Positions 1-58,100 of a stretch of DNA of 58,100 nt are shown here, one piece after another. Made by a program: the position numbers and the translations under genes. The stretch comes from Candidatus Altimarinota bacterium (GTDB lineage: Bacteria; Patescibacteriota; Gracilibacteria; BD1-5; UBA6164), in contig JAWUYB010000027.1 in assembly GCA_034111025.1 (NCBI GenBank), positions 1 through 58,100 of the forward strand, given 5' to 3'. The first letter of the stretch is position 1. Each line of letters opens with the position of its first letter. The notes under the pieces were generated by a model, which ran no database searches, was not told the origin of the DNA, and was given only the letters and a program-made list of their open reading frames with translations.

Positions 1-80
1 AAGAAGGCAGAAAGCATGAATAAAACTACAAATCATCAAATCAGTAAGGGGTCCACAAGTTTTTTATTATTATATAAACA

Positions 81-107
81 AAAAAATCTAAATAAATAGA
101 TTTTTTT
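81..107. terminator. Bidirectional hairpin terminator (aaatcta-aataaa-tagattt flanked by A/T runs)
   Basis: Inverted repeat 84-90/97-103 with an A-run before and a T-run after. It lies just downstream of the minus-strand CDS ending at 147. Confidence 0.45.
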
Positions 108-146
108 ATTATTTTATTAGTTTTTTTTATATTGTAAAGAAAAATT

Positions 147-1784
147 TTATTTCGAACCTACAACCTCAAAGTTCTCTCAAATAAAGTTTTTTTCTCATCA
201 AATAATTATATGATTTGATAAGACACTAATAGTTCATGTTCATGAATCATCTATAGGGTTAATATAAACTCAATATCAGCTCTGAGTATATGATTCTAGG
301 TGATATGAAAGTGTTGCATTTGAATTATTAGCAAAGAAAATAGCATAATCTTTATTTTGAAAATCAAATACAAATTCATCACCTGTCTTTTCTTTTGCTA
401 CTTCTAATGATCAATCTCACGCGTTCAATTGTATATATCATAAATATTCATCTATGTTTTTACCTTCATATGAATTAAGTGGTAATAATGTAAATTGATT
501 TTTATAAACTTCTCTATCAAATTCTAAAATTTTTATATTATAATCTAAATCTTCTGTATTAAATGTATTTATAAATACATGAGCATTATTAGTATCTCAC
601 ATTTTTACATTTAATATATCATCATTATTCGTATTATTTTCTATTATTTTTATTGTTTTATAATTATTCCAATAAATATGCTGATAAGAAGTATTCGGAT
701 CAACACTACCAAAAATTGTTTTTCTAGGAATTACATCATCATCTTGATAGTTATTTGGAAAATATGTATTTCAAATAGAAGTAACCTTATAATTATCAGA
801 ATTTAAATCGTCATCAATCCCATCATTTCATTCAATTCAGTCTTTTGAAAAACTCATTAATGTATTATCAGTATCAGTAAATACTCTATTTCCTTCCCAT
901 TCTTCATTTCATGCTGATATTGTATTTAATAGATATATTTCAAATTCAGATATATCTAAATATCTTCAATTAACTTCTAAGCGTATACTATCAACATCGT
1001 TAGTTAATCATCTATATTTTAAGTCTATTTCATGATATGTTCTTCATCTCATTCCAGATAAACTTGTATTAAATACTACTGTAGAGCCATTATAGAATTT
1101 AATACTTCAATTATCCCAATAAACCCATCATCAATGACTCGGTTTCCTTATAATGATTTTTCATATACTTTGATTAGATCATACTTCAAATTCAAGGTAT
1201 TCTACTGAGTTTCTGTAGTTACTATCAAACCATGTTGAAGTATTATCATCCACACTGTTAGCTTTAACATAAGAACCCCATGCTGTACTAGAACTGACAT
1301 CTCAATTATTTAGATTGATATGGCTATTCTCAACCGTTATTTCAGTACCGACAGATTCTATTATATTTACTATATCTCCATCATATTGAGCAGTACTAAA
1401 GTCATTAACTTCATCATCATAATGAATTTTAAAATCATCTCAGTTATATGTACCTAAACAATGGACTTTTCAATATTGATACACAAGAGTTGTAGCTATT
1501 CAAGTGATCCTATTAAGAGATCAACTCATGGTAATATCTTGTGGACAAGAAATACCATCTAAAAATCACTCTCAATTCGCATTATATTTAATAACAGATT
1601 CTATGGCTATATGTCATTTATTATATATATTTGAATATACTTCTTCTTGATTATTTCAGACATCAATATTATTTACAATAACATAGGAATTATTATATAC
1701 TACTATTCATACAACCAGAGCTATATTTACAAGCAACATTACATATAATAATATACTTCATTTCTTATTTCTATCTAGAATCAT
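147..1784 (-). CDS. Membrane-anchored PilX-like minor-pilin candidate with discoidin/galactose-binding-like domain (545 aa)
   Basis: With TGA=Gly there is one uninterrupted 546-codon frame from ATG (1782-1784) to TAA (147-149), where the standard-code track shows no ORF at all. The N-terminus MILDRNKKGSILLYVMLLVNIALVVGIVV is a PilX_N-like hydrophobic helix. The central segment ...NSVDDNTSTWFDS..VEYLEFEV..IRLEVNGRYLDISEFEIY resembles the F5/8 type C (discoidin) fold. Confidence 0.6.
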
Positions 1785-1788
1785 TTTT

Positions 1789-2412
1789 TTAAAAAATTAG
1801 ATTTATATTAATAATATCTTCAGGATTTATATTATCCAAGCGTAGATCTTTATTACTATCATTATAGTACAACAGTACATCCAAATCCATATTAATAATT
1901 GTACCAGAATTATAGATACTCATTTGGAAATCTTTCATTTTTAATCCATCGAATAATTTATCTGGGAAAAATTTTAAATCATATACTAAGCTTGGATTAG
2001 AATTAATATTTGTCAGTTCTGTTTCAGATAATTGTCTGTATCCTAAAACTTTATCATAATAGAGTTCATAGTTTAACTGTTTTTCAATAGACATTGTCTC
2101 TTTGTTTACAACTCAAAAAATCACTCATTTTGAGGAATCAATATTTTCCATGAGCATTATATCACTTTGACTCCCTGTTGCTGTGGTAGCAAGTAGATTT
2201 TGATCAATGTACCCTCCTCTTGCGTATTTATTAAAAATATCTTTGAAACTAAAGATGTCTTCGTAAATTTCAGTTTTTTTATTTGAACTTATAACAGTTT
2301 CTATACTATCAGCTACAAATGTTAATACTATAAGCATTACTATTGTAGAAATAGTTATCGAAATAACTAATTCTACCAATGTCAAAGCTTTTTTTGATAT
2401 GAAAGATTTCAC
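1789..2412 (-). CDS. Type IV pilin-like protein (prepilin-type N-terminal helix), 207 aa
   Basis: Track ORFs 2125-2412 and 1789-2094 are in the same frame and are joined through TGA codons (2125-2127 and 2113-2115). The N-terminus is MKSFISKKALTLVELVISITISTIVMLIV. The true stop is TAA at 1789-1791. Confidence 0.7.
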
Positions 2413-2478
2413 TATTAAAAAAAATTAAATATAATATAAAAAATCAATTTTATTATACTAAATTTGAATATTTTGCAA

Positions 2479-3813
2479 ATGAAACCACAAAAGAAGGCAG
2501 AAAGTTTAGCAGCTGTAATTATATCAGTTTTTATTTTATCAATAGCTTTGCTATGAATCATGAATATTGTATCGTTTAGTAAAGACACAGCTATTGATTA
2601 TGAAACAGAGATGTTCAAACATATTATTAAATCAAACTCAGAATCCCTTATAAAAGCATTTGATTATGATAACTTAGAAAATCAGGAGCTTTTTTATATC
2701 TATAAAGATACTGAAAATAAGCAATATAGAATAATGACTGGATCAACGAATAGTTGAAGTAAATATGTTGATAAATTATGAAACCGTATTAATGATTTAG
2801 ACGAAGGGATTTGAAAAACATATAAGCGTGAATTTATTCATAAATCGGATATTCTAAAACATAGAATTGATCCTCCTGAAATTCCAAATATAATTTATAA
2901 TTATGATGCTCAAAATATTGATTTGGACCAAAACTCTACGTTAAATGATGGAGATGCAATAACTATATGGAAAGACTCAGCAAATAATCATGATGCAATA
3001 TGATCTTGAATATGAAACTCTCCTATCTTATATATTAATGAAATTAACTGACACCCTTGAGTAAAATTTGATGGATTAAACGATTTTTTAAGAATTGAAA
3101 AAAATGCAGAAATAAATAATGATGATGTTTGTGATACAAACTTACTATTCAATCAAAAATCATTCACTATGGTTATTAAAACATCAGATGATGTGACAAG
3201 TGAACAAGCAATTTATGAACAATGATGAGTAGCAACAGGATATAATTTTATGATTCGTAACTGAGATTTATATGCTTGAGTTCATAATGTAACTAAAAGT
3301 GGTACAAATTATTCTTGTTATCAAGATAGAACACAAGACCGGGATGACTGGCATAAAGCTAAATCAATTAGTTTAGGAGAAGCCCTCCCAAATACAGTAT
3401 ACTATGTAACTGTAGTACAAGATTCTAATAATTTTGATATTAATGGGAATCCTATAGATAGCTTAAATAAATTACAAATATTTTTAAATTGAGAACTTGT
3501 CATTGAAACAGATCATGTTGATCCTCAGCCAGAACATGATATTTGAGGTTTATGAGCAGTTTATTCAAATAATGTAGAACCTTGGAAAACATGATCGAGT
3601 TATTCTGATGGGAGAGAACATAATGTAATTAACTGTAGTGAATGTAATTATTTTAAATGAACTATTTGAGAATTTATTTCTTGGAATCACGCTTTAACAA
3701 AGGCAGAAGTAAGAGGAATACATAATTATTTATTAGAAAAATGGCTCCATTGAAAACAAAATGTTAATTATTCAATAATTGATATTAATATAAGTAAATA
3801 TAATTCTAACTAA
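2479..3813 (+). CDS. LamG/concanavalin-A-like (Laminin_G_3-type) domain protein with pseudopilin-like N-terminal helix, 444 aa
   Basis: Frame runs from ATG 2479 to TAA 3811-3813 when TGA is read through, and is in frame with track ORF 2560-2757. The N-terminus is MKPQKKAESLAAVIISVFILSIALLG. The LamG_3-like tail is ...VKFDGLNDFLRIEK..FTMVIKTSDD..LQIFLNGELV..FKGTIGEFISWNHALTKAEVRGIHNYL. Confidence 0.6.
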
Positions 3814-3825
3814 TAATAAATCAGA

Positions 3826-4614
3826 ATGAACATAAATAAAAAAGCATTTACATTTGTAGAACTAATAGTTTCTACAGTAATCATTATCGTACTTACTAGT
3901 ATTTGATTTGTTTCATATGTAGATTTTATTTGAGATTCAAGAGATGCTCAAAGAAAATCAGACTTATCTAAAGTATCTTCTTCATTAAAAATTTATAAAC
4001 AAAAAAGAGGTTATTATTCTCCTCCAGGAGATTCTTTCTACATATTAAATCAATGAAAGCAAGTATCTCAACAATGAAAATTGAATAAAAAAGTATTTTT
4101 AAATACACTAGATAAGCTTCCTTCTGATCCAAAATCAGGAACTTATTATTCTTATGCTGTAACAAATAATAAACAAGAATTTCAACTTGCTGCAACACTA
4201 GAAAATTGAGAAACTGAGATACCTTTATTAGAATGAAATTATAAAACTATTTCAAAAAACATACTCCCTACTCTGTTGTTAGCAGTAGACTCTAGTGAAG
4301 ATATAGAAATACATGACTGAGTATGAACATGAACAATCAATAGAAATAAATTTATATTTAATGATGTAGAATATAACTTACCATACACTATTGAAAGTCC
4401 TTATCTTTCATATAATGAATGAACTGATTTTGCTACAAATTTGGCAAAAGCAGAAGATTTAAATAGTTTTTGGCAAAATAATGATTATAGAAATTGTATA
4501 GAAATCCTAGAAGCTGGAAAGTCTATATCTGATAACTGAGTATTAGAAGAATACCAAATACTTTCAGATACTGGAGCATTAACTAATACATGATGTACTT
4601 TCTTAACTCAATAA
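3826..4614 (+). CDS. Type IV pilin / GspG (PulG)-like pseudopilin, 262 aa
   Basis: The N-terminus MNINKKAFTFVELIVSTVIIIVLTSIG is followed by DSRDAQRKSDLSKVSSSLKIYK, which is typical of the GspG/PulG N-terminal region. Frame runs from ATG 3826 to TAA 4612-4614 with many in-frame TGA. Confidence 0.75.
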
Positions 4615-4642
4615 AAAAAACAGATTTAAAATCTGTTTTTTT
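4615..4642. terminator. Bidirectional rho-independent terminator between convergent pilin gene and hisS
   Basis: Stem aacagat (4619-4625) pairs with atctgtt (4631-4637), with an A-run before and a T-run after. Confidence 0.6.
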
Positions 4643-5960
4643 ATTTTTGAATAATTTTTATAGCTTCTTCTAAAGAAATATTTGTTTGTTCTTCAGTAAT
4701 TGTATTTTTCAGTTGAACTATATCTTGAGAAATTTCATTTTCACCTGCAATTAAAACAAATTTAATTCCTTTATTGTATGCATATTTCATTTGTTTTTGA
4801 ACTTTAGCACTATCTAAATAATATTCTGTATTAATATTATTATTTCTGAGTATTTTTACAGTATTTAAATTCTCTACTTGAGTATCTTCTCACATATTTA
4901 AAACAAGTACTTTAGAAACCGTTTTTTCTTTTAATTCGATGAGTTTTAATTCTCTTAAAACTGCAAGAAGCCTAGATAAACCTATACTTCCCCCCACACC
5001 TGGGAAATTATTTTTTGTGAAATTACTTGCAAGATTTTCATATCTTCATCCTGAACTCACTGATCACATTTTTTCAGCACCTTTTATAAAAGTTTCATAA
5101 ACAGTTCCAGTATAATAGTTTAGACCTCTTGATATTGTAGGGTTAATTTTTATATAATCCTCTTTTACTCCTAAGGTTAATAGGTTATTGTATACATATC
5201 TAAGCTCTTCTAATCCTTCTTGTAATAATTCATTTTTGTTTTCTGAAAAATATTCTAATATTTCTCATGAGTTTTTTTCAGTACTCAGAGTAATATATTC
5301 AACTATTTTATCTTTTTGTCCTTCAGTGACTCAAATATCTGCTAACATGACTGCAAATTTATCTCTTCTAACTTTGTCTTTTTTATCTATCACTCAGATA
5401 GTTCAAACTATATCTGTTATATCTAAACTTTCTAGAAATCAAGATAAGAATTTTTTATTATTTATATTGATTTCAAATGCTCCAAAATCAAGTTCTAATA
5501 ACGAATTATAAATAGTAGAAAGAACTTCTACATCAGCAAATATTGGTAATTTCCCGTTTCAAACTATATCAACATCAGCTTGATAAAACTCTCTATATCT
5601 TCCCTTTTGAGGCCTTTCTCATCTATATACTCTTGCTATATGTTGTCTCTTAAATGGAAAAGATAATACTCCTTCATATTGAGCAACATAACGAGCAAAT
5701 GGTACTGTGAGGTCAAATCTAAGACCAAGTTTAGCTTCAGATGATTCTTCCCCATTGAGTCTATATATTCAATATATTTCATTATCATCTGCTCATTTTG
5801 CAGTAAGTGAATCAACCCTTTCAACTACTGGAGTATCAAGAGGTGTAAATCATGAAAGATTATAATTTTTTTTAATTATTTCTTTAAATTTTTCTTCTAA
5901 AATTTGTTCTTCAGGCATATTTTCATAGTAGCCTGATATTGGTAATGGTTTAACTATCAT
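4641..5960 (-). CDS. hisS: Histidine--tRNA ligase, 439 aa
   Basis: Read-through translation gives [99 protein letters not shown], the class II HisRS motifs. The C-terminal anticodon-binding part reads ...FVLIAGENE. Confidence 0.9.
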
Positions 5961-6475
5961 TTTGATTTTATTAATTTTATTATTTTCTACATTATAGAAT
6001 AATGTATTTTTTTTACAATTTATATTTATATATTTCAGCAACAGTGCAAAATTAACGCATAAAAGTAATTTTTATAAATATTTTTCTTTTTATATGTCAT
6101 GTTTAAATTTATGATAAAAATAAAAAACTGCTCTCCTTACGTATAACAGTTTTTATATAGATATAATTCAGCCAAAAAAGCTAGAAACTGTTATGTTCAG
6201 AATCTATGATGATGTAAAGATTTTTGATAATTATTTCACATATCTATAATATTTATTTATTAATTCATATAATTTATACTTTTTTATGAAAATTAGTCAA
6301 TGTATTGTCTGAATATTTAAATTAAAATAATGTGAATTATCCCTATAAATAAGTAATATAATAAAATATATAATAAAATAATAAGTTTATTTGACAATTA
6401 TTTGATTTAATTTTTAAAAACATATATAATATATGTATACAACAAATAAATTAATTGTAAAACAAAAATAAAAAC

Positions 6476-7414
6476 ATGGAAAAAACTAAAAAAATAAATC
6501 TTTCTGCGATAATGAAAAAACCGCTTGAAAACGAATTTAATCTCACAAATGAACAGTGAGAACATATTGAAAGCACTACACATCCTACAATTAAAGCTTG
6601 AGTTACGATTAATATCAGTTCTATTAAATCTGATAAAATTGTGGAAGAAGTGATAATAGAGGAAGTTGAAGAAGTTATAAAAGATGAAAAAACTCTTTTT
6701 TATGAATCTCTTACATCTAGAGTCCTTCCTATAAAAAAAAGAAAAATTCAAGAAAAGAAAAAGAAAATAGATTTAAAAAGTACAAAAAAATCAGATAAGA
6801 ATGATGATGAAAAAGAAGATAAAGAAAATAATTGCAAAACGATAATAGATAAAGATTGAGAAGAAAAAGAAGTTTGTGATATTAACCTATGAGTTAATTC
6901 AAAAAAAGTAGATAATGATCTCTTTCTAAATTACCAATCAGATTATAAGAAAAAAGAATCTATAGTAATAGATACAATACATAAATTGAAAAAACTTGCA
7001 GATATAAAAAAACTTACAAAAACGAATAAAGTATTTGTAGTTTCCATTATTATGGTAACAGTTCTATGATTATCATTTCTTTTCTATATTGATCCCGAAA
7101 CACATTCATTAGAAAATTATAAAACAAGTATATTAACTATAGCTTGAAAAGAAGTAACTCAAGACGAATTAAATAATCATCAAATTGAGATAACAAATGA
7201 TATAATTTGGCAATTAAATCAAAATAATTTATGATGATATCAATTAGATTTTGAAATACTAACAAATAATAATTGAGAAGCTATATATAAGTTTGATTGA
7301 ACAGAGTATAATTCTAAAGATTCCCTTGATATTGGTATAAGGGAAAGACTAAAAAAATTAAAAAAATTCAAAATAAAAAATTATTTGAGAACAAAAAAAG
7401 AAATTTCTAACTAA
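6476..7414 (+). CDS. Hypothetical single-pass membrane protein upstream of pilB, 312 aa
   Basis: Frame runs from ATG 6476 to TAA 7412-7414 and is in frame with track ORF 6641-6859. It has a K/E/D-rich N-terminal half, a TM segment VFVVSIIMVTVLGLSFLFYI, and a C-terminal domain of about 100 aa. I recognise no family. A PilN/PilO-like role is only positional speculation. Confidence 0.55.
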
Positions 7415-7430
7415 AAGAAATTTCTTTTTT
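7399..7430 (+). terminator. Hairpin terminator (two copies of the self-complementary agaaatttct) plus T-run
   Basis: agaaatttct occurs at 7399-7408 and 7416-7425, followed by ttttt. Confidence 0.5.
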
Positions 7431-7530
7431 ATATTAAAAAAAATATTTAAAAAGTGTCAATAGATTATATTTAACAAGATTTTAAATACATGATATTATA
7501 ATAGAGAATAAAAATTTAAAACAAAAAATT

Positions 7531-8751
7531 ATGGCAAATAAAGCAGAATTAGATGCATTAAAAATGACTCGAGATGTTTGAGATATCGTTGAGTATGTAT
7601 GAAATACATTTAAAGAGGCTATTGATCAAGAAGCTTCTGATATCCATATTGAGCCAAATGAACATTTTTTAATGATTCGTTTCCGTAAAGATGGTGATTT
7701 TATACTATTTGATAAAATAGATAGAGAAAATATTTCTGCTGTGGTAACGAGACTCAAAGTACTATCAAAGATTAAAATTGATGAAAATAAAAAACCTCAG
7801 GATTGAAAAATTGTATATTATTATGAAAAAGAAGATAAGAATATTGATATCCGTCTCTCTACCCTTCCTACAACTTATGGTGAAAAGGTAGTAATGCGTA
7901 TCTTGAAACAAGATGATAATTTAACTAATATTGAAGCTTTATGACTTATAGATGTGAATCTTGAAAAAGTAAGAGAAGCACTGACGAGTAAATATGGGAT
8001 TATGTTGGTAGCTGGACCTACTGGTTCTGGAAAATCAACTACTTTATTTGGTATTTTAAAGAATTTTAATCCATTAGATTTAAATATATCTACTCTAGAA
8101 GATCCAATCGAGTATGATATTGAATTTGTAAATCAATCACAAGTGCAACCAAGTATTTGATATACATTTTCTTCCGGATTAAGATCATTAGTAAGACAAG
8201 ATCCAGATATTATCATGGTTGGGGAAATAAGAGATAAGGAAACGGCAACACTAGCTGTAGAAGCTGCACTTACTGGTCATTTGGTATTATCAACAATCCA
8301 TACCAATTCAGCAGCAGGTACAGTACAAAGACTTATAAATATGGGTGTAGAACCATTTCTACTTGCATCAGCAATGAAAATGGTAATCTCTCAAAGACTT
8401 TCCAAACGAATATGCCAAAATTGTAAAGAAGTTTTTCCTATTAAAGAAACTCAAATACCAAAACTAAAAGAACATTTATCACCAATATTAGATGAAAAAA
8501 TAGAAAATTTAACATTTTATAAATGAGTTGGTTGTGATAAATGTAAAGGTTCTGGTTATAAATGAAGATTATGAATACATGAAGTATTAATATGTTGAGA
8601 TTATTTAGAACCTTTGATATTAGAAAAAGCTTCTGCTAATTTAATGGCTGAATCAGCTATTAAAGAATGAATGGTTACGATTGTTCAAGATGGTTTATTA
8701 AAAGCACTGTTATGAGAAACAACTGTTGAAGAAGCATTAAAGCTCATTTAA
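7531..8751 (+). CDS. pilB: Type IV pilus assembly ATPase PilB/GspE family (short form), 406 aa
   Basis: Joins track ORFs 7954-8160 and 8215-8526 in one frame through TGA. Motifs: PQDGKI, Walker [41 protein letters not shown] (the TGA falls at the conserved Gly), [13 protein letters not shown], and the Cys cluster CQNC..CDKC. The long N-terminal GSPII_E_N domain is absent. Confidence 0.9.
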
Positions 8752-8775
8752 CTATAATTATAATAAATATAAAAT

Positions 8776-10674
8776 ATGTTTGGTTTTAAAAAGAAAACAC
8801 AAGTGGATGAAACAAAAATTCAAAGTTATAAAGATGCAGTAGAAGCTGTAGAAATCTTTATGCAAATTTATGAGTGGGAAAAATCTAGAAATGCTCTCTT
8901 TGAAATTAAATCAAAAGAAAAATCATCATTAGATGAACTTATTCAGAAAATTGATTCTGAAGATAATATTCAAGCTCAGCAACAAAAAGTAAAGTTAATG
9001 AGTAATTATAAAAATAAAGAAAAACAACTTGCAAAGTTAGAAACTGAATTAGATAGTAAAGAAAAAAAATATAAAAATGCTTCTGAAAAAGAAAAATTTA
9101 AAGTACGTTTTCAGAAGATTAAAAATGAAATTGAAAACCTTATATCAAACAAGAGAGCTATTGATGCAATGGGTTTACTACAAAAATTTCTTGAAGAAAA
9201 TACTGAAAATTCTGTCGTAATTAAATTTTTTAATAAAGAGAAAAAAAATTTACATCAACATATTGAAAAACAAAAAAGTATCGAAGAAAAAAAATTCAAA
9301 GATAATGCAAAAATGCAAGCTATGAAATTAATATGAAATATTGTGAATTTAGAACCTGAAAAAGAAGATAATAAAGAGAAAAAACTTTCATGATTTGCAA
9401 AATTTAAAGCAAAAATGAATTTTTATAAAAGAATAAAAAATAAAGCCAGAAATAAAAAATTATTAGATGAAATTAATATTCTTATAGATGCAAATTCTCA
9501 AGTAAAAAAAGATCTTGCAAAAGAAAAATTAGAAAATATACATAAAGGTTTAATTAAAGAAATATCAAATAAAAATATCATATGATATGACTTATATGGT
9601 AAAATTTTATGAAGTGATAAAATTTCATGAGATACCTTTGGATTTCATGAAGGAACAACAAAATATAATTTTTTCTTATGAGATGCAACTGGTCACGGTA
9701 TTAGAGCTGGTTTTATAGTTACTTTATTGAGTAGATTATTCAATGAACATTTAAGTAAACCAATCGATGAGCTAGCCATGGAAATAAATAATGGTTTAAA
9801 ACAAGATTTAAAAAATAGAAATTTCATTACATGAGTATTTTTTGAAATTTTAAAAAGTAAAGTTGATACATTAAGATTTGTCTGAATGTGACATGAACCT
9901 ATGTTAGTTTATCGTGAAAATACTAAAATAGTAGAATCTATTATACCTGGTTGATTAGCAGGTTGAATAAGACTTATCAAAGAAAAAACAGATGTAAAGA
10001 TTAAAGATATTGAAATGAAATCAAATGATATCATTTTGATCTATAGTGATGGTATTATTGAAAATAAGAATTCTGATTGAGTTTTTTATTGATTAGGAAG
10101 ATTAAAAATTGCTTTTGAAAAAATATTATCAGTAGAACAAGATACTACAAAAATATACGAATATCTTGTTAATGATGTACAATTATTTAAATGATGAAGT
10201 GCTTTTGAGGATGATGCTAGTGTTTTGATTATAAAAAGAGATACTGAAAAAGATATTATTACTGAAAATTCAGATTATATTCAAGATATTACTTTAAAAA
10301 AAGGTCTGAATAAAAAACAAGTAAAAAAGTTTGGATGAAAAACTAAAGATGAGATAGAAGTAGAATTAAAAAAGATAAAGAAAGATAAAGATACAGAAAG
10401 GATCTTAAAAATTTTAGAAAACCTCTATTATACATGAGAGATATTACTATTAAAACAAGAAGCTATTAAATATATTAAACAATGATATATTCATAAAAAA
10501 ATTAATCTCTATCTAAAAAAAGCAATTGATAATGAAACCAAATATAAAGTAGACCAAAAAAATCAAAAAATGAGTAGTAAATATATAGTACTTACAGAGC
10601 TTTATAAAAAATGAGATCACCAAACAGTTATTAATGAAATTGAGGAAATAATTTCACAAGACGGAAATATTTAA
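8776..10674 (+). CDS. Coiled-coil protein with PP2C/SpoIIE-type phosphatase domain, 632 aa
   Basis: Track ORF 8776-9336 (K/E-rich coiled coil) continues through TGA into GDTFGFHE..FFLGDATGHGIRAGFIV..GMGHEPMLVY..ILIYSDGIIEN..FEDDASVLII (SpoIIE/PP2C signature). A further coiled-coil tail follows, and the stop is TAA at 10672-10674. Confidence 0.75.
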
Positions 10675-10686
10675 TAAATACACTCT

Positions 10687-11901
10687 ATGTTTTGAAAAAC
10701 ATTTTATGATAAGTATGGGAATTTTGAAAATGAAAAATTCATCTTACTTCTCGAAAAAACAAAAAAGGCTCAAGAGATGAGTAAATATAAAAAAACAAGC
10801 AATATGAATCAAGATATTGCTCTATTTAATAGTGTGAGTAAAAAAGAATTATGGCAGTTTATTAATAAACTTTCAATTTTTGTAAACTCAGGTATTGATA
10901 TTAAAGGTGCATTATGAATCATGGCTAAGCAAGTAAAAAACCCATTTTTACAAAAAATTGTTTTAGAAATGAAAGACAATATTGATCACGGTATATGAAT
11001 CAGTGAAACTATGACACAATATCCTAAAGTATTTGATACATTAACAGTTGCATTAGTTTCAGTATGAGAAAAAACAGGTCAATTATGAAAAATTTTAGCA
11101 GAACTAGATTTCAATTTACTAGAAAGTATAGAATTAAAAGGAAAAGTAAAAGGTGCAATGATGTATCCTATGATACTTTTGGGTTTAACAATTTGTATGG
11201 TGATATTTATGATGATATTTATTGTACCAAGAATTACTGAAAGTTTTACCAAAGCTGGTGCTGACTTGCCTGCATTAACACAAATGGTGGTTAATGTTTC
11301 TAATTTTTTAGTATGACAATGGTATATACTCATTGCTTATTTTGTATGAACTTATATTTTATTAAAACTTATAAATTCTTCATATTTTTGAAAAATGCTG
11401 TTTGCAAGTTTTTTTATAAAAATGCCAATTTTTTGATATGTAGTAAGGCAATCAAATATAGTATTTTTTATTAAATCCTTTACTATATTATTAGACTCTT
11501 GAGTTTTACTACTAGAATCTCTTAAAACATCGAGTCAAGTAGTATCAAACTTGGCATATAAAAAAGAATTAATTAGAATTAAAAATGAAGTTGAAATTTG
11601 ATTAACAATTTCAAAATCTCTTTGATTAAATCTTGATTATGAAGCAAGTGTCTATATGAATCCTTTCTTTCCTGAAGAATTTGCATATGTTGTAAGTACA
11701 GGTGAGGAAACTTGAACTTTATCAGTATCATTACAAAAAATCTGAGCTAATTATAATGGTGATTTAAAAAGATATATTTGAAATATGTCTAGTATGATGG
11801 AACCAGTTATTATTGTGATAGTTGGTGCTTTAGTAGGAACAATTGTAGTTGCAATTATGATGCCATTCTTCCAAATGGGTGATGTAGCTAAAAATCTATA
11901 A
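10687..11901 (+). CDS. pilC: Type IV pilus platform protein PilC/GspF family, 404 aa
   Basis: Two T2SS-F repeats are present (..LVSVGEKTGQLGKILAELD.. and ..VVSTGEETGTLSVSLQKIGANY..). There are several TM segments, and the C-terminus is EPVIIVIVGALVGTIVVAIMMPFFQMG. The standard-code track shows nothing on this strand. Confidence 0.85.
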
Positions 11902-11936
11902 AAAAAAATAAAGTTCAAAAAACTTTATTTTTTTAT
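11902..11936 (+). terminator. Rho-independent terminator after pilC
   Basis: Stem ataaagtt (11908-11915) pairs with aactttat (11921-11928), followed by a T-run. Confidence 0.55.
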
Positions 11937-11968
11937 TTTTTTATTTAGTATAAAGGAAAAGAAGCTTA

Positions 11969-11997
11969 TTGACTTATGTGAAAAGTAATTATATCTT
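11969..11997 (+). promoter_or_regulatory. Sigma70-like promoter candidate for the major pilin gene
   Basis: TTGACT (11969-11974), a 17 nt spacer, then TATCTT (11992-11997). This would give a leader of about 145 nt before the ATG at 12144. Confidence 0.35.
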
Positions 11998-12143
11998 ATT
12001 AACTAAATCATTAATAGACATATTGTCTATTATAAATAATTGCTTTTCTCTTCGAAATAAGATAGAATTGGAATGTCTTAAAAACAAGACACTAATTTTC
12101 AAAATTTACTTTTGTATTTTATTTTTTAAACAGATATAATTCT

Positions 12144-12689
12144 ATGAAAAATACAAATAAAGCATTTACACTAGTGGAACTAATTGTAGTTATCACTATA
12201 CTTGCTGTTCTAGCTACTGTTGCATTTATATCTTTTAGTGGTCAAACACAAGAAGCGAAAAAATCTAAAGTTGTTTCTGATTTAGCTAACTTATCTAAAT
12301 CTATTGAATTAACTGATACAGGGATTAAAAATATTATTTCTGGAGCTTCATCAACTAATGAAGTTACTGGTACTGCAAATGGTGATACTATAGATGCAAC
12401 TACTTATGGTGTTGGTTGAGTTGACTTTACAGTTGTGAATCAAAATCCTTCTGAATTTGTTGATGCTGAGGGTAATGCTTATATGTTTGCATACTTTGCA
12501 TCAGGTTCATTTAATAAATACCAAGTTGTTGGTCAAGTAAAAAACGGTGCTGGTGATAATGTATCATTATTAAAAGGGAGTTACTTCCAAGTTGGTAATA
12601 CTGATGCTCTTGGTCTAGTTTCTGTTAATAGTACTAGTACTACTGGTCTAACTAATGAAGAAGAAATTGGTCAAACTTCAATTTACTAA
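12144..12689 (+). CDS. pilA: Major type IV pilin candidate, 181 aa
   Basis: The prepilin N-terminus is MKNTNKAFTLVELIVVITILAVLATVAFISF. Track ORFs 12144-12419 and 12435-12689 are one frame joined by a single TGA. The gene is monocistronic, sitting between a promoter-like site and a strong terminator. The globular part is G/T/S-rich. Confidence 0.8.
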
Positions 12690-12701
12690 TAAATATTAGT
12701 T

Positions 12702-44938: not shown

Positions 44939-47048
44939 ATTCCCCGGCTTCTTTCATACTCAATTGAATTTTCCCAGTTTTTTCATCTATACTCATAAGT
45001 TTCACTCTAACCTTTTGCCCAACTTCAACTACTTCTTTTGGATCAGATATATATCTGTTTACCAGTTGAGAAATATGAACCAGTCCGTCGTTTTTGAGAC
45101 CGATGTCAACGAATGCTCCGAAGGCTACTACGTTTCTAACTACTCCGTCGAAAGTTTCTCCTTGTTTGATTGTTTTGATATCTAGTTTTTGACCAGCTTT
45201 TTGATGAGAAGAATTCACTCTTGGATCGTGACCGATATTTGCGTGAGATTCTAAGATAAACTCAACCGTTCCAGCTGTAGCATCAGTATAAAGTTCTTGA
45301 AGTTTCGCTTTATTTGATGCAAAACTAGCAACTGTAATGTTATTTTCGATAACATATTTAGCTAATTCATATTGATCAGGATGGATATCTGTATTATCAA
45401 GTGGTTCAGGACTTTCTGGTACTCTCAAAAATCCAATGGCAAGTTCAAATACTTTGTCTGAAAGTTGTTTTTTAAGATGTGCTCTTGATTTATAAGGTCT
45501 ATGGTTGTAGATCTTTTTCGCTGATCTTTTATCGATACCTGAAATATGGTTTAATACATATGATGATGCATTATTTACATTAATCCCGATTTGATTGACT
45601 ACATCTTCTACTACGTACCCAAGTTTTTCTTCAAGTTTTTTTATTGGCATATCATGTTGATACATCCCTACTCCGATACTCTCAACTGGTACTTTTACTA
45701 GTTCTGATAATGGATCGATAAATCTTCTCCCGATCGAAACTGTTCCTCTATCAAGTGAATCTAGGTCTGGAAATTCTTCTTTTGCGATTTTACTTGCTGA
45801 ATATACAGAAGCTCCAGATTCGTTTACGATAAATATTTCTCCATCGAATATTTCTTGAGTTAAATCAACTGATTCATTACAACCTGTACCATTCCCTACA
45901 ATAACTACTTCTATTTTATATTTAGTAATCCAAGATTTTAAGAAAGCTCTTGCTTTATCTTTTGAAAAAAGGAATATTTTATTAAATTCGAGAGGTTCAC
46001 CTAAACTATCTAATACTGCGATTTTACAACCTGATGCAAATCCAGGATCGATTGCTAGAATATTTTTCCCGTATTCAGGTTTCGTCATAAGAAGTTTTTC
46101 TAGATTTGTTTGAAATGAAGCAATAGCATCATCTTCTCATAGTTCACTTAATAATCCTCTTACTTCTGTTTCTACTGATTTGAATAGAGTTGTATACCCT
46201 TCTTTGAAAGCTTCTTCTAAGAGTTCAGTAAATTGACTTCTTAATTCAATAATTCTTGAGTAATGCATTCTCACCCCTTCGTATGTTTTATCAGTTTTTT
46301 CAATTTTAGCTGAAATGATTCATAAGTTTTCACCTCTATTTAATGCAAGAATTTGATATGGTTTTATTTTGAAAAGAGGACAAGAAAAATCAGCATAAAT
46401 ATCAAATTTAGGGATTTGCTTTGTATCTTTTTCATTCAATTTCTCAAGAGCTTTTGCTGTTTTGATTTTTGATGAAATAGTTCCATATTGTTTCAGTGTT
46501 TCTACTAAATCTTCTCTCATTGCTGAGTGTGATGAAACTTCTGCAGCAACTATAAAATGTGAACCTTCTAAGATGACTTCTAGCGTATTTTCTTCTGATA
46601 ATAATACTTGAAATTCTTCTGATTTTTCTATAGTTCCAGCTGTTATATTTTGTTTTATCATATCAGCAACCACTTGAAAACCTTTTTCAATAGCGATCAT
46701 TGCTTTTGTTTTCTTTTTTGATTTATATGGTTTATAGATTTCTTCTACTTGTTTCAAAGTTGAAGCTGCTAGTATATTAGCCATAATCTCATCAGTCATT
46801 TTATCTAATTCTGTAATCCCATTGATGGCAGTTTGCTTTGCAGAGAATAGATTTTCTTGTTTCTTTTGAGTATCTATGATAGCACGAATTTGATCTTCAT
46901 CGAGATTCCCTGTGATTTCTTTTTTATAACGAGCAATAAAAGGGACAGTAGCTCCCTCAGCAATTAAGTCTAGAACGACTTTTACTTGCCCAACAGCAAA
47001 GTTTAATTCTCAAGCAACACTTTCATTATAAATTGGTTCAACTAACAT
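44937..47048 (-). CDS. tex: Tex-like transcription accessory protein (YqgF + HhH + S1 domains), 703 aa
   Basis: Joins track ORFs 46320-46799 and 44937-46088. Sequence landmarks: GATVPFIARYKKEITG, LAIDPGFASGCKIAVLD, VIVGNGTGCNES, and the C-terminal S1 domain GETFDGVVRNVVAFGAFVDIGLKNDGLVHISQL. Only 3 TGA occur in 703 codons. Confidence 0.9.
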
Positions 47049-47126: not shown

Positions 47127-47885
47127 TTACTTTTTTGTAGCTATAGCTTGATTAATAAAATCAAATCCTAGGATATGTCATAAAAATACTTTATATCATT
47201 GTGAATAGTCTTCATTGACTTCAAATCAACTTGATGACAGCATAGTTTTTGTATCTGTAAAAAATCAATTATGATATATTCATTTTTTGACACTATTTAC
47301 GTAGCCAGATTGTAAAATAGCAAACACTTTACGTTGAATTTTCGAAATTAAATTACTTCATTCAGGAACATATGTATCTAAAATATAAATATTTCCTCAT
47401 GGTTTTAAAACACGATAAGCCTCCTCTATCATTTCTTTTTTAATTTCATCTGTATGATGATGTTGCATTTGAATATCAAAAATAAAATCAATACTGTTAT
47501 TTTCAAATGGTAAATCCTGAGCAAATCATTCAATAAATTTAATTCTATCATCTCATTGAAATTTTTCTTCAGCAATTCAACGCATTCATGCAGAAGGTTC
47601 GATTCAATAAAAATCAAATTTAGTACCCAATAAACTTTCTACAGTTTTTTTCATTTTATGTCACTGTCAACTTCATCTCTCTAAGAGAGTTCCATAAATA
47701 ATAGATGATTGATTAATTGATGTTTCTTCTAAATATTTTTGAATTGTTGGAATAATAATATATTGATAATACTCTGCACGTATCCATAGTACAAAATTAT
47801 TCCACGAGCTTTTCGAACGTTCATCATAAACTTCTTTTAATAATTCTGTTTTCAGAACAGGAGTATTATTGGTTTTTTTTAACAT
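47127..47885 (-). CDS. Class I SAM-dependent methyltransferase, 252 aa
   Basis: Track ORF 47673-47885 continues as ..LLERGSGQGHK.., where all three Gly of the ExGxGxG motif are TGA (plus strand 47661-47680). Later motifs are ..FIFDIQMQHH.. and ..LKPGGNIYILD... Confidence 0.8.
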
Positions 47886-47957: not shown

Positions 47958-49100
47958 TTATAATCGAAATACTCTTGTGATTTCAAATTGTACTTTAAAA
48001 TTATCTCAGAATTGTTCTCACATTTGTGATTCTATCACTGATAATATTTGTACTATATCTGCTCATTCTTGTGCCTTAATTTGAACATATACTTGTAACG
48101 ACTTTCATACTTTCTTAGTAGTTATATTATTTACTTCAAAATTATCTTGTACAAAGTTATTTTGCTCTAAAAATTCTTCTACTTGATGTGAAACGATATA
48201 GTTATTCTTTAAACTATAAAAAGACATAAGTAATGGTGCAAGAATTAATAATATTAACACACTAATAATACCTATTCTTCTTATAACTGCACTAAATCAT
48301 TTTGAATCGTGTGGAGAAAAACCATAAAACCAAAAGAATATTGTAGCAACTAATACGATAGCAAAGAGATTAGCTAAAAATAACATCAAAGCTGATCATG
48401 CTGCATAGAAATTTCAAAAGGCTAGATATATTCATACAACAGCTAACGGTGGCATTAAAGAAGCTGCCATAGCAACTCAAGCAATACTTTCACTTAATCG
48501 TGAAAAACGTAGACTCAGGACAGCTACCATAGCTGAAAATATTGCAATGAAGAAATCTAAAACATTTGGATTACTTCTTGCTATTATTTCTGTTGTTTCT
48601 ATATCAAAACCAAAAAGTTTAGTGACTAAAAATCAAAGTAATATTGCAAAAACAATAGAACCTATAAGGGACTTTAAAGCTGTCTCAAGTCATTTTTTCA
48701 CACCTTTTGCTATAGAAAAACTCAGAGCATTAATAGGACGTAATAAAGGTGCAATCAACATGGCTCCAATTACAACTGCAACTGAGTTTTGCAATAATCA
48801 CAGAGTCGCAATAACACTTGATAAAAATATTTCAATCCAATAAAGTCTATCTAATTTTACTTGTGCTTTTATTTGAGTAGCTACCGTTTCTTTTTCCTCA
48901 TTTTCTAATTCTAAAAAATCAATTCTATCAAAAAAGTGACTGATTTTATCTTCCATTGAGCTTTTCGCTTTATCTGAAATTGGATCAGTTGTATCTGTTT
49001 GTTTAAGAATTTCTTTTACCTCTTGCTTAATCTCTTTTTTTTCTATTTTAGAAAGCTCAATAAATTCTTCTTCGGAAGATGATTTTTTATTTTCTCACAT
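47958..49100 (-). CDS. DUF389-family integral membrane protein, 380 aa
   Basis: ..VVIGAMLIAPLLRPINALSFSIAKG.. and ..AASLMPPLAVVGIYLAFG.. are typical of DUF389/TIGR00341. The N-terminus is acidic. Track ORF 48547-48843(+) is antisense and spurious. Confidence 0.65.
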
Positions 49101-50027: not shown

Positions 50028-50927
50028 TTATTTTATAAATTCATTATAACGTCTAAACCATGTATATTGTCTTTTGGCATAATTTCTATTATGCTGTTGA
50101 ACCAATCATATACATTCCTCTAGTGAAATTTCTCATTTTAAATAACTTACTATTTCGATATATCCAATTGTTTTTAAACCTGGGGTTTCATCAGAATATA
50201 TTTTTCTTAGGTTTTTAACTTCTTCTATAAGTCATTCATCGAACATCATTCAAACACGAGTATTTATATTCGTGTATAAGCATTCTCTGTCTTTAATTTC
50301 TGGTGTAAGAAACAGTATATCATATTTTAGTTCTTTTTTTGTTCTAAAATCTTGTTTAGACTGTCCTGTTATAATTTTTACTTCCAATGCTCTAATAACA
50401 TATTGAACATTATTTGGATGTAACTCTTTCGCATATTCAGGATCTAAAGCAACAAGTTTATCGTAAACATATTGATTTCCATATTCTTTCGCTTCGTTTT
50501 CTAAAATTCCCCTTAGTACTGAATTTGCGATAACTTTTGGGATATTGAAATTAAATATTAAACTATCAATATATAATCAAGTTCATCCACATAGAATGGG
50601 TATTTTCCTTTTACTATAAATAAAAGAAATAATTTCTTCTGTATTATTCTTAAATTCTCCTACCGAATATACTTCATCTGGATTAATTAAGTCTAACATA
50701 TGATGAGCTACTCCTTGCATTTTATCATATGTAATTTTTCCAGTTCAAATATTCATCTGCTTATATATTTGACGACTGTCCGTTGATATAATTTCCGATT
50801 CTAATAATTTAGCTACTTTTATACTTAAAGAGGTTTTTCAAGATCAAGTTGGTCAGTAAATTACAATAATTTTCTTTTTATCACTTGTCTCCTTTAAAAA
50901 ATTATTTATCTTTTTTTCTAAATCCAT
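50028..50927 (-). CDS. miaA: tRNA dimethylallyltransferase MiaA, 299 aa
   Basis: The P-loop IVIYGPTGSGKTSLS is encoded ..tac-TGA-cca-act-TGA-tct-TGA-aaa-acc (plus strand ~50832-50858). Other motifs: ISTDSRQIYKQMNIGTGK, PILCGGTGLYIDSL, QHNRNYAKRQYTWFR. Confidence 0.9.
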
Positions 50928-51096: not shown

Positions 51097-51172
51097 TGCC
51101 AATTTAGCTCAGCTGGTAGAGCATTCGCCTTGTAAGCGAACGGTCATCGGTTCAAATCCGATAATTGGCTCC
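51097..51172 (+). tRNA. tRNA-Thr (anticodon TGT), CCA encoded
   Basis: Full cloverleaf folded by hand: acceptor gccaatt/aattggc, D arm gctc..gagc, anticodon arm ttcgc-CTTGTAA-gcgaa, T arm atcgg-ttcaaat-ccgat. Confidence 0.9.
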
Positions 51173-51236
51173 ATTAAATTATAAAACAAATTACGATTTA
51201 GAATTGTTAAAACTATAATTCGTGATTTTTGTTTCT

Positions 51237-51321
51237 GGGCAGATTCCAGAGTGGCCAAATGGGGTGGACTGTAAATCCGCTAGCTTCGCTTTCGTGGGTT
51301 CGAATCCCTCTCTGCCCACCA
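51237..51321 (+). tRNA. tRNA-Tyr (anticodon GTA), class II long variable arm, CCA encoded
   Basis: The sequence aligns closely with the bacterial tRNA-Tyr architecture: ..agtggccaaat.., anticodon loop ctGTAaa, a long variable arm, and T loop ggttcgaatcc. Confidence 0.9.
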
Positions 51322-51381
51322 TATATAAACCTAAAATATTGCGAACTTAATAAATCAAGCTCGTAGTTTTTTAAATAAAAT

Positions 51382-51466
51382 GCCCAGATGGTGAAATTGG
51401 TAGACACGTCGGTCTTAGAAGCCGATGTCTTCGGACGTGAGAGTTCAAGTCTCTCTCTGGGCACCA
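51382..51466 (+). tRNA. tRNA-Leu (anticodon TAG), class II, CCA encoded
   Basis: gcccaga..ggtagacac.., anticodon arm tcggt-CTTAGAA-gccga, a long variable arm, and T arm gagag-ttcaagt-ctctc. Confidence 0.9.
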
Positions 51467-51530: not shown

Positions 51531-51788
51531 ATGAAACAAGCTATACATCCAGAATCAAGAGAAGTTGTTTTCGTAGACAGAGCTGCTGAATACGTATTAA
51601 AAACAATCTCTACTGTTGCTACTAAAGATACTCACGAACATGAAGGTGTTGAATACCCTTGTGTATATATCGAATTATCTTCAGCTTCTCACCCATATTA
51701 TACTGGTGAACAAAGAATTCTTAAAACTGGTGCAGTTGATAAATTCTACGCTAGACAAAAGAAAATGGAAGAACTAAAAAACAAATAG
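51531..51788 (+). CDS. rpmE: 50S ribosomal protein L31, type B (no CxxC zinc motif), 85 aa
   Basis: The ORF is intact in the track. MKQAIHPESREVVFVD...YIELSSASHPYYTGEQR is the L31 signature. Confidence 0.9.
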   Translation: MKQAIHPESREVVFVDRAAEYVLKTISTVATKDTHEHEGVEYPCVYIELSSASHPYYTGEQRILKTGAVDKFYARQKKMEELKNK

Positions 51789-52114: not shown

Positions 52115-52696
52115 ATGGCTGTTACTAAACAACAAAAATCTGATATATTAGCTGGATTAGTTGCTCAATTTAAAGAAGCTAAATCAATCGGTTTTTCAAA
52201 AACTACTACAGTTACTGTAGCAGAATTTGCTGAATTAAGAACTTCACTAAGAGAAGTTGGAGCTACTTATACTCTTGCTAAAAAAACACTTATCAAAATT
52301 GCTATTAAAGAAGCATTAAATATTGATATTGATTTAGCTGCTTTAGAAGGTCAAATTGGAGTTGTATGTTCAAACGAAGATGCAGTTTCTGGACTTGGAA
52401 AAGTTAATGACTTAGTTAAAAAAAGTGCTGAAAAAATTGAATGGGCTGCTTGTATATTCGAAGGTGAATACAAAGGTCTTGAAGAAACTAAAGTACTTGC
52501 TGGATTACCATCAAAAGATACATTACTATCAAGAATGGTTGGATCTATGATGTCTCCTCTTTCTGGAATGGCAAGATTACTTGACGCTGTTGCAAAAGAA
52601 ACTGAAGCTCAAGGAAAAGAAAAAGCTGGTGAACTTGAAGCAAAAAAAGAAGAAGCAGAAGTTGTTACTACAGAAGAAGAATCTGAAAAAGCATAA
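52115..52696 (+). CDS. rplJ: 50S ribosomal protein L10, 193 aa
   Basis: The ORF is intact in the track with no TGA. It lies upstream of rplL. The tail is acidic (C-terminal). Confidence 0.9.
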   Translation: MAVTKQQKSDILAGLVAQFKEAKSIGFSKTTTVTVAEFAELRTSLREVGATYTLAKKTLIKIAIKEALNIDIDLAALEGQIGVVCSNEDAVSGLGKVNDLVKKSAEKIEWAACIFEGEYKGLEETKVLAGLPSKDTLLSRMVGSMMSPLSGMARLLDAVAKETEAQGKEKAGELEAKKEEAEVVTTEEESEKA

Positions 52697-52861
52697 TTGA
52701 TACCTGGTTCAGGAGAACTTGATTTTATCAAGTTCTCTCAACTAGCTATTAAAGTTAGTCATGTGAATTTGATTCAGAATCTCAAATACGAGAACTGAAT
52801 CTGAGATTTTGAAATAAAATCTACATGAAAAATATATTTATTATTATAACTATTTGAAAAA

Positions 52862-53230
52862 ATGGCTGAATTATCAAAAGGTGCTGCTCAAATTATGGAC
52901 TTAGTTAAAGAATTAACTATTGTTGAATTAAACGACCTTGTTACTGCTATGGAAGAAGAATTTGGAGTTTCTGCTGCTGCTCCTGTAGTTGTTGCTGCTT
53001 CTGGTGCTGCTGAAGAAGGACCTTCATCTTTCGATGTTGTATTAATTTCTGCTGGTGCATCTAAAATTGGTGTAATCAAAGTAATTAGAGAAATTTCTGG
53101 TCTTGGATTAAAAGAAGCTAACGCTATAGCTGATGCTGGTGGTAATGTTAAAGAAGGTGCTGATAAAGCTGAAGCTGAAGAAGTTAAAGCTAAATTAGAA
53201 GCTGCTGGAGCTGAAGTTGAATTAAAATAA
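52862..53230 (+). CDS. rplL: 50S ribosomal protein L7/L12, 122 aa
   Basis: The ORF is intact in the track: ..[52 protein letters not shown]. Confidence 0.95.
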
Positions 53231-57264: not shown

Positions 57265-57386
57265 AATTTCTTATAAAGTTATTATATAAATATTTAACAT
57301 ATTTACATTTAATAAATATGCTGTAAAGCAATGTTATAACACTTTGTAATTAATTGCAAATTACGAGATGATTATATAATATAAAA

Positions 57387-57404
57387 GTAAGAATGAGGTA
57401 AGAA
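57387..57404. promoter_or_regulatory. Second GTAAGAA-N4-GTAAGAA direct repeat, upstream of the E/K-rich protein gene
   Basis: gtaagaatgaggtaagaa, about 125-140 nt upstream of the ATG at 57264. It has the same orientation and spacing as the site at 55918-55935. Confidence 0.45.
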
Positions 57405-57498
57405 ATTAGTAAAAAAATAGTTTTTCATAAATATGTCACTGCTCATATTATCAAGATACTTATCTAGAAACTAATTTAGCATATATTATAACATAAAA

Positions 57499-57527
57499 AA
57501 ACACCTCATATTAGGTGTTTTTTACTG
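57499..57527. terminator. Hairpin terminator
   Basis: aaaaaaacacct-catatt-aggtgtttttt. It overlaps the stop of the lipoprotein gene. Confidence 0.6.
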
Positions 57528-57908
57528 TCTAGCCTTATATAATTCTATCATTTGTTTTTGTGCTTCTGATAAATTACTTTCTAATTTTATCCTTTCTAAT
57601 TTTTCTTTTTCTATTATTAATATATCTTGTTTTTGCTTTTGTTTTTCTTGCTCTATAAGAATATTAGTGTCATATCTATTTTGTTCTACTAATTCTTGTT
57701 TTTTAAAATTTCATTCAATTGTTAATCTTTCTTTTTCTTTTTCATTAGTAATATTTTTTAAAGATTCTTCAAAATCTAATAATTCTTGTTGATATTTTAC
57801 TTCTTCTATTTTTAGTTTTTCAGATTCATTTATGATAATTTCTTTTTCTGTATTATGAGAACAACTCATTAAAATAGTTAATAATAATAGTACAATTATT
57901 TTTTTCAT
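57522..57908 (-). CDS. Putative lipoprotein with coiled-coil, 128 aa
   Basis: MKKIIVLLLLTILMSC has a lipobox-like LMSC. Track ORF 57711-57926 continues through TGA to TAA at 57522-24. The start at 57908 is preferred because the upstream gene stops at 57919-21. Confidence 0.6.
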
Positions 57909-57918
57909 TTTCTCTATG

Positions 57919-58100
57919 TTAATCAATTATAATATTATCTAAGTATAAATATGTATCGATATAATATCATCCTCCCACTTCCCATCTAAAATCATACGTA
58001 CCTGGTTCTAAAAGTGGTGTTGTAAATGTATCATATGAATCAACTCATGTCGCTCTACTTACTTTGTATAAGTATTCTATATCGTTAATAAAGAACTTCA
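57919..58100 (-). CDS. 3' end of a CDS running off the window (partial)
   Basis: The frame reads ..KFFINDIEYLYKVSRATGVDSYDTFTTPLLEPGTYDFRWEVGGGYYIDTYLYLDNIIID, then TAA (57919-21). I recognise no family. Confidence 0.4.

Follow-up and report, generated by a model that had tools for sequence, protein, structure and literature searches.

The question raised by this locus is what the codon TGA means in it: stop, tryptophan or glycine. The window, as we call the whole stretch of DNA that was analysed, comprises 58,100 nucleotides (nt) of contig JAWUYB010000027.1 (assembly GCA_034111025.1, Candidatus Altimarinota bacterium). A sequence-only reading had proposed that TGA encodes glycine across the window (translation table 25), and we found that the counts of open reading frames (ORFs), the glycine columns of alignments, the Pfam scores and the codon exchange with relatives all agree with this. 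We put at roughly 0.96 the probability that the window comes from the chromosome of an uncultured bacterium of BD1-5 / Candidatus Gracilibacteria (Patescibacteria, candidate phyla radiation) that uses code 25, with UGA as an ordinary Gly codon and only UAA and UAG as stops.

TGA as a sense codon across the window

The guanine + cytosine (GC) content of the window is 26.8%. Under the standard code we observed 2 stop-to-stop ORFs of at least 300 amino acids (aa), compared to 27 when TGA was treated as sense, the longest of them with 1,448 aa. This lengthening is specific to TGA, because the number of such ORFs remains at 2 when TAG or TAA is made sense instead. We defined 52 non-overlapping gene models, entering TGA as residue X, and obtained a coding density of 86.5%. 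Within the 16,698 codons of these models TGA occurs 536 times in frame, spread over 46 of the 52 genes, the first (147-1784, 34 TGA) and the last (57522-57908) included, and not a single in-frame TAA or TAG was found. TAA terminates 47 of the models, TAG the other 5. The expectation of the sequence-only reading that full-length proteins ending in TAA or TAG emerge once TGA is read as Gly therefore holds for 52 of 52 models. The lengths and C-termini of the proteins agree with those of their homologues, and several Pfam profiles are covered end to end across TGA codons (T2SSE 6-369 of 370, tRNA-synt_His 4-308 of 308, SDF 2-387 of 387, IPPT 1-242 of 243); further matches include FtsZ, FtsA, NusA, Na_Ca_ex, RuvX, L9, Tex and others. 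Counted as a Gly codon, TGA is the commonest one of the window (536 of 1,159, 46%). Six genes are free of it: rplK, rpmE, rplJ, rplL, 39389-40450 and 40468-41055.

The features on which the following analysis is based are:

1-58100, no strand: chromosomal fragment with 52 gene models, TGA read as sense
4641-5960, minus strand: hisS, 13 TGA (tRNA-synt_His profile, E. coli alignment)
7531-8751, plus strand: T2SSE/PilB-like ATPase, 11 TGA (T2SSE profile, E. coli alignment)
18006-19205, minus strand: ftsZ, 7 in-frame TGA including those of the G-box (19065-19085) and of GLG-TGA-GTGTG (Pfam, motifs)
19233-20468, minus strand: ftsA, 26 in-frame TGA (Pfam FtsA, E. coli alignment)
31805-33076, plus strand: SDF-family dicarboxylate/amino acid symporter, 18 TGA, used in the profile test (SDF profile)
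34640-34660, minus strand: nitroreductase motif LQPWKLF with TGG for Trp (motif)
35273-36043, plus strand: K+ channel with the selectivity filter TTTGF-TGA-D at 35804-35824 (Pfam, motif)
36367-36594, plus strand: remnant of an rve-type (IS3-like) transposase, 75 codons, 5 TGA (weak Pfam rve match)
44937-47048, minus strand: tex, 703 aa, 3 TGA, query for relatives (homology)
47127-47885, minus strand: S-adenosylmethionine-dependent methyltransferase with motif I E-R-G-S-G-Q-G at 47661-47681 (Pfam, motif)
50028-50927, minus strand: miaA with the P-loop GPTGSGKT at 50832-50855 (IPPT 1-242 of 243)

Every motif cited earlier as carrying TGA at an invariant Gly was found. All three glycines are TGA both in the P-loop of MiaA and in motif I of the methyltransferase, and the glycines of the PilB motifs are TGA as well (PQD-TGA at 7795-7806, SI-TGA-YTF at 8152-8169). 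The G-box of FtsZ reads VV-TGA-VG-TGA-G-TGA-NNA, as had been described, although on the minus strand and not on the plus strand. In the K+ channel the filter itself was recovered, with TGA at its second Gly only. The motif SRK-X-NC (36478-36495), attributed to an IS3 transposase, is present too, and the identity of its gene is partly supported: the remnant matches Pfam rve with 19.7 bits (E 1e-3), a score that does not reach the curated cut-off, and only if X is read as G, while with X at the TGA positions it is not recognized by Pfam. Three of its 5 TGA codons probably lie at Gly positions of IS3 transposases, and the mobile element presumably therefore used the same code. An intact transposase was not found in the window.

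If the standard code applied, the TGA codons would have to stem from gene decay or from mistakes in sequencing or assembly, or else encode selenocysteine or be sites of programmed read-through. We found nothing specific in favour of this, and public table-11 calls of this DNA give fragments only. The complete lack of in-frame TAA and TAG argues against it, as does the fact that the essential genes ftsZ, ftsA, hisS, nusA and miaA would all be broken; moreover, dozens of relatives have conserved either TGA or GGN at the positions concerned. Selenoproteins carry rare UGA codons at Cys/Sec sites together with a selenocysteine insertion sequence (SECIS) element, whereas the window has 32 TGA per 1,000 codons and these face Gly, not Cys/Sec. 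The specificity for TGA, together with the statistics of the Gly columns given below, already refutes the standard code, which is vanishingly improbable here.

The amino acid read at TGA

For identifying the amino acid we aligned the X-containing proteins of the window to their E. coli K-12 orthologues (ftsA/Z, hisS, nusA, miaA, rplK/J/L, tex, gspE/F, hofB/C, yggR, yrbG, gltP and ompR/envZ). At 133 TGA columns E. coli has G 61 times, A 16 times and W twice, compared to a background of 7.2% G in all aligned columns (binomial P = 5.8e-34 for G at TGA). Considering single proteins, G faces TGA at 6 of 7 columns in FtsZ, at 13 of the 23 aligned columns in FtsA and at 6 of 10 in MiaA. E. coli has G at 68%, 61% and 50% of the GGT, GGA and GGG columns of the window, respectively, and the runners-up at GGN columns are the same as at TGA columns (A, E, S, D, P). 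We also ran a likelihood test whose conditional distributions were trained on the remaining 61 codons. The TGA columns are explained best by Gly, with an ln-likelihood of -278; Trp follows with -344 (from 11 training columns only) and Ala with -350, which puts Gly 66 units or more ahead of any other amino acid.

The same preference was observed with profiles and distant homologues. In 28 homologues of the SDF transporter with at most 46% identity, G makes up 302 of 504 residues (60%) at the 18 TGA columns, and 12 of these columns are at least 79% G. Pfam scores decrease in the order G, A, X, W according to how TGA is read: reading it as G, A and W gives 107.9, 89.7 and 69.0 bits for FtsA, 69.3, 61.6 and 49.9 bits for SHS2_FTSA, and 218.5, 215.3 and 199.3 bits for Na_Ca_ex. 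The composition of the proteins points the same way; with TGA as Gly they contain 6.9% Gly and 0.5% Trp, whereas with TGA as Trp both Trp and Gly would amount to 3.7% of residues. The tally of TGA columns against homologues and profiles, which had been suggested as a check of the proposed code, thus favours Gly, and neither Trp nor stop.

Reading TGA as Trp corresponds to translation table 4, the code of Mycoplasmatales and of some insect endosymbionts. It fits the low GC content and the long ORFs equally well as table 25, and within the same phylum it has been reported for some Patescibacteria of class Minisyncoccia (preprint 10.64898/2026.05.24.727570). Many close public homologues also have W: in the nearest 19 of the SDF transporter we counted 218 W and 100 G at the TGA columns. 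These W residues come from translation with table 4 and reflect a fallback of the gene caller, not biology. The 2 W among 133 E. coli residues, the Pfam scores, which are lowest with W, and the rise of the Trp share all contradict table 4; so do the codon exchange and the tRNAs of relatives described in the next section. It is highly improbable, and at the level of column statistics already refuted.

Gly might also not be the only change, if CGA and CGG were additionally read as Trp. Both codons are very rare (CGG 3 and CGA 6 of 16,698), as in clades where they are reassigned, and CGG is read as Trp in some Gracilibacteria (PMC8629427). However, where a CGA codon could be aligned at a conserved site, it is opposite Arg; this applies to two positions, R293 of T2SSE (compared to E. 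coli) and position 201 of gene 47958-49100 (compared to 8 relatives). The three CGG codons all fall outside such columns. We regard such a further reassignment on top of code 25 as unlikely.

Relatives, codon exchange and the decoding machinery

Relatives of the window were collected by a scan with the Tex protein, taking one genome per species of GTDB. The nearest Tex proteins are encoded on two contigs of metagenome-assembled genomes (MAGs) of Candidatus Gracilibacteria, CAXHZN010000009.1 and CAWUVK010000003.1, both 84% identical, and the Tex of the closed genome CP042461.1 is 67% identical. Gene order is also shared between the window and Candidatus Gracilibacteria MAGs. The affiliation with BD1-5 / GTDB class JAEDAM01 is thus based on protein similarity and record titles rather than on a marker-gene tree. 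Each of the Tex orthologues scored at 50% identity or more contains 3-36 in-frame TGA, except for three at 59% (L031, L033, L034); these and a group at 44-49% have no TGA, and their loci show long ORFs under the standard code. The window thus sits inside a recoded clade which also has standard-code neighbours. The three exceptions, apparently with standard code, have a GC content of about 41%. Four standard-code contigs with 44-49% Tex (L055, L062, L067, L092) are titled as Methanosarcinales or Woesearchaeota archaea and are probably mis-binned or mislabelled Patescibacteria. One of them, L055, keeps TGA as a stop despite a GC content of 26.7%, which shows that recoding does not follow from a low GC content alone.

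We then compared the codons of the window with those of Gracilibacteria orthologues of at least 45% identity. For 1,284 TGA codons of the relatives, the window has GGN in 65% and TGA in 13% of cases; opposite GGA of the window, the relatives have TGA in 40% and GGN in 39%. Among the codons one base away from TGA, GGA is the main partner with 52 cases, and every other has at most 7. At 104 TGG codons of the window, which face TGG/Trp in the relatives, TGA was never found. Trp is hence still encoded by TGG, as the sequence-only reading had argued from GNNWEIV (36969-36989) and LQPWKLF, both of which do contain TGG. The pattern is the signature of a synonymous exchange between TGA and GGN.

The only tRNAs of the window (ARAGORN, Rfam) form one cluster:

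51098-51466, plus strand: tRNA cluster Thr(UGU)-Tyr(GUA)-Leu(UAG)

Since the window contains neither a tRNA(UCA) nor a release-factor gene, the decoding mechanism of this genome has to be deduced from its relatives and the literature. Public contigs do not extend the view: the longest public contig with an identical L10 protein has 13 kb and lies wholly within the span of the window, and the 107-kb contig L094 of a close relative has no tRNA within 10 kb on either side of the query gene. In the related locus L046, whose tex contains 33 TGA (24 of them opposite a Gly of the window), a tRNA with the anticodon UCA adjoins tex at 9801-9879 and scores 44 bits with the Rfam tRNA model. The minimum-free-energy fold of this tRNA is not a cloverleaf, a structure which is favoured by the Rfam score and by covariation. 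Using its anticodon arm as a pattern for a metagenome scan, we obtained at least 120 matching loci. A pattern match in L052, outside these loci, was rejected as a chance match inside coding sequence. From the first 80 loci 75 tRNAs were recovered, and all 75 have 79 nt, the anticodon UCA, G1:C72, C2:G71, G3:C70, U73 and an encoded CCA. The consensus of this tRNA-Gly(UCA) family is GCGGGGGTAACATAAAAGAGTGAGTGTACTAAGGCTTCAACCCTTGGGTGTGCSAGTTCAAACCTSGTCCCCCGCTCCA. The cloverleaf is 99.5% paired, with compensatory changes at 9 pairs (in 17 of 25 distinct sequences). For the loci of at least 5 kb (65 of the 120 listed) the median GC content is 27%, and their ORFs need TGA as sense. Examples are:

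L157, 5603-5681: tRNA(UCA) (pattern scan)
L118, 2307-2385: tRNA(UCA) (pattern scan)
L096-L215: the 120 loci listed from the pattern scan

Among the loci listed, the first two carry the tRNA(UCA) nearest to the window, judged by FtsZ (77.5%) and FtsA (63%) for L157 and by a VirB4-like ATPase (75.7%) for L118.

The bases found in 75 of 75 tRNAs are exactly those of the identity rule given for tRNA-Gly(UCA) in PMC8629427. With U73 and the G1-C2-G3 acceptor they represent the identity set of Gly and not of Trp, which is a further argument against table 4. With 7/5 in the acceptor/T arm and 4 nt in the variable loop, the tRNA(UCA) of the clade differs from tRNA-Sec, whose architecture is 8/5 with a long variable arm; ARAGORN labels it as tRNA-SeC, by the anticodon only. 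Its shape is atypical in other respects. The anticodon stem has 6 bp, with an extra outer pair C:G that is U:A in one variant, and the D-loop has 10 nt and is devoid of the usual GG. The arrangement of tRNA genes in some loci is also of interest. The Thr-Tyr-Leu(UAG) cluster of the window is conserved in L016, L020, L021, L028 and L042. In L161 (821-1206) the tRNA(UCA) follows tRNA-Thr and tRNA-Tyr, at the slot where the window has tRNA-Leu and which glyT(UCC) holds in thrU-tyrU-glyT-thrT of E. coli. In L181 (6993-7160) it lies 13 nt upstream of a tRNA-Gly(UCC). The arrangements in L161 and L181 hint that the tRNA(UCA) arose by duplication of a tRNA-Gly.

On the basis of relatives and literature, UGA would be decoded by a dedicated tRNA(UCA) bearing the identity set of glycyl-tRNA synthetase (G1:C72, C2:G71, G3:C70, U73). 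Release factor 2 (RF2), the reader of UGA as a stop, would be lost, with release factor 1 (RF1) serving UAA and UAG, and Trp would remain on UGG via tRNA-Trp(CCA). No match to RF1 or RF2 homologues was obtained in the window and 119 recoded loci (1.22 Mb pooled), a search without power; prfB is missing from all BD1-5 genomes examined in PMC6851277. We found tRNA-Trp(CCA) in 3 of the related loci; two of these (L033, L034) look like standard code.

Some observations weigh against reading TGA as Gly in this organism. TGA columns face G less often (46%) than GGT columns do, which leaves room for low-level ambiguity and also fits a concentration of TGA in less constrained genes or positions. Lineage alone does not prove the code, given that standard-code lineages exist at a similar distance (Tex 59%; 44-49%). 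The window, by ARAGORN and Rfam, has no tRNA with anticodon UCA, and it also contains no glyS/glyQ, prfA or prfB; the evidence for the code in this organism is at the level of DNA.

Uneven TGA use, annotation and known systems

The genes of the window differ strongly in how often they use TGA. None of the 42 Gly codons in rplK, rpmE, rplJ and rplL (33243-33707, 51531-51788, 52115-53230) is TGA, and the two adjacent genes of this set are:

52115-53230, plus strand: rplJ-rplL, no TGA, all 26 Gly codons GGT or GGA (codon counts)

The share is low in ftsZ (15%), nusA (17%), tex (7%) and the pilin gene 12144-12689 (6%), compared to 50-90% in many other genes of the window. For the ribosomal protein genes against the rest of the window the difference is significant (Fisher P = 1.5e-9). 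In relatives (L016, L020, L022, L023, L028, L042 and L045) TGA accounts for 0 of 76 Gly codons in rplL and 1 of 51 in rplK, with similar counts in rplJ and rpmE, against about 63% of Gly codons in the pooled relatives. A general avoidance by ribosomal protein genes was rejected, as rplA (10 of 18) and rplI (4 of 8) do use TGA. In the TGA-poor genes GGA, only one base away from TGA, is used freely. Because of the near-exclusion of TGA from a few very highly expressed genes, this free use of GGA and the atypical tRNA-Gly(UCA), UGA may be decoded more slowly or at a higher cost than GGN and be subject to translational selection, an explanation that we consider possible but tentative.

Another reading is a dual meaning, in which UGA is mainly Gly but, depending on the context, can also end translation or be decoded slowly and leakily. 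The near absence of TGA from the highly expressed rplL, rplJ, rplK and rpmE, in the window and in relatives, would fit, and rare non-Gly peptides at UGA have been detected by proteomics (PMC4032931). However, no gene model needs TGA as a stop, the proteins are as long as their homologues, and TGA occurs at conserved Gly up to 5 codons from true C-termini, e.g. in the response-regulator tail RK-X-F-X-Y. TGA is also found at catalytic Gly of FtsZ and of P-loops and, as mentioned, within rplA and rplI. A dual meaning is therefore very unlikely.

The two other TGA-free genes are adjacent on the minus strand (39389-41055) and have a GC content of 0.35 and 0.40, compared to 0.27. Neither has a Pfam match; one product has a signal peptide, the other is acidic, rich in Pro/Thr and membrane-anchored. 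Searching 5.8 billion proteins gave only 13 homologues, all of the same length. L015 and L016 lack the pair at the syntenic position; in the closer L094 and L095 it is syntenic and TGA-free. This conservation leaves a recent insertion from a standard-code donor unsupported. It is more likely that high expression of what looks like an abundant secreted pair accounts for the TGA-free state.

Further genes of the window include a type IV pilus-like set at 2479-13875 and 36591-38093, to which the PilB/T2SSE ATPase (7531-8751) also belongs, as well as very large secreted proteins:

3826-4614, 12144-12689 and 36591-38093: prepilin-type proteins with N-methylation motif
8776-10674: SpoIIE/PP2C phosphatase gene, between pilB and pilC
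10687-11901: PilC/T2SSF
12790-13875: PilT-like ATPase
20717-21919: second paralogue of the SpoIIE/PP2C phosphatase
22220-23914: VirB4/TraG-like P-loop ATPase
24749-29086, strand opposite to the VirB4/TraG-like ATPase: large Cys-rich secreted protein, 1,445 aa, 66 TGA
29475-31577, strand opposite to the VirB4/TraG-like ATPase: large Cys-rich secreted protein, 700 aa

The two large Cys-rich proteins, scanned by eye, contain no recognized domain.

The practical consequence concerns annotation. Table 11 breaks up 46 of the 52 genes of this contig. Public table-11 calls confirm the warning that a standard-code annotation is wrong for nearly every gene; Tex and MiaA are among those that they split. 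Such fragments occur in JGI records of identical or near-identical DNA, e.g. Tex as 92 + 127 + 383 aa (L094) or 383 + 43 + 159 aa (L010); ENA records (L095) contain full-length proteins. The fallback to table 4 writes Trp for Gly, catalytic glycines included. For this lineage, the wrong residues contaminate protein databases and carry over into domain searches and predicted structures. The value of our analysis is practical rather than conceptual. It adds one more confirmation of pervasive UGA-to-Gly recoding in BD1-5; only the uneven use of TGA among genes and the unusual shape of the tRNA-Gly(UCA) of the clade form a mildly new thread.

With respect to known systems, the window is an instance of code 25, a well-documented code, in a lineage from which it is already known. 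Code 25 has been described in BD1-5 / Candidatus Gracilibacteria (PMC6851277, PMC4032931), proteomics of a BD1-5 enrichment yielded 97 peptides unique to UGA-Gly translation versus 3 unique to UGA-Trp (PMC4032931), and the table-25 clade corresponds to GTDB class JAEDAM01, comprising BD1-5 and Absconditabacterales (preprint 10.64898/2026.05.24.727570). The closed genome CP042461.1 (Gracilibacteria bacterium 28_42_T64) likewise uses UGA for Gly, UGG for Trp and TAA/TAG as stops. Its GC content is low as well (28.9% compared to 26.8%), and it has gene families, synteny and the tRNA Thr-Tyr-Leu cluster in common with the window, with Tex 67% identical. There is no difference in kind, only one of species or genus. 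The sister order Absconditabacteria (SR1) has a tRNA-Gly(UCA) and has lost RF2, according to Campbell et al. 2013 as cited in PMC8629427. Like the window it reads UGA as Gly, by means of a tRNA-Gly(UCA) with G1:C72, C2:G71, G3:C70 and U73. For Absconditabacteria a reading of CGA and CGG as Trp has been inferred in addition, whereas CGA faces Arg in the window and CGG is limited to 3 codons. Code 4, as in Mycoplasmatales, insect endosymbionts and some Minisyncoccia, involves the same codon in low-GC reduced genomes that have lost RF2. It differs in the amino acid: the TGA columns of the window are Gly columns, and the tRNA(UCA) of the clade carries the identity elements of Gly.

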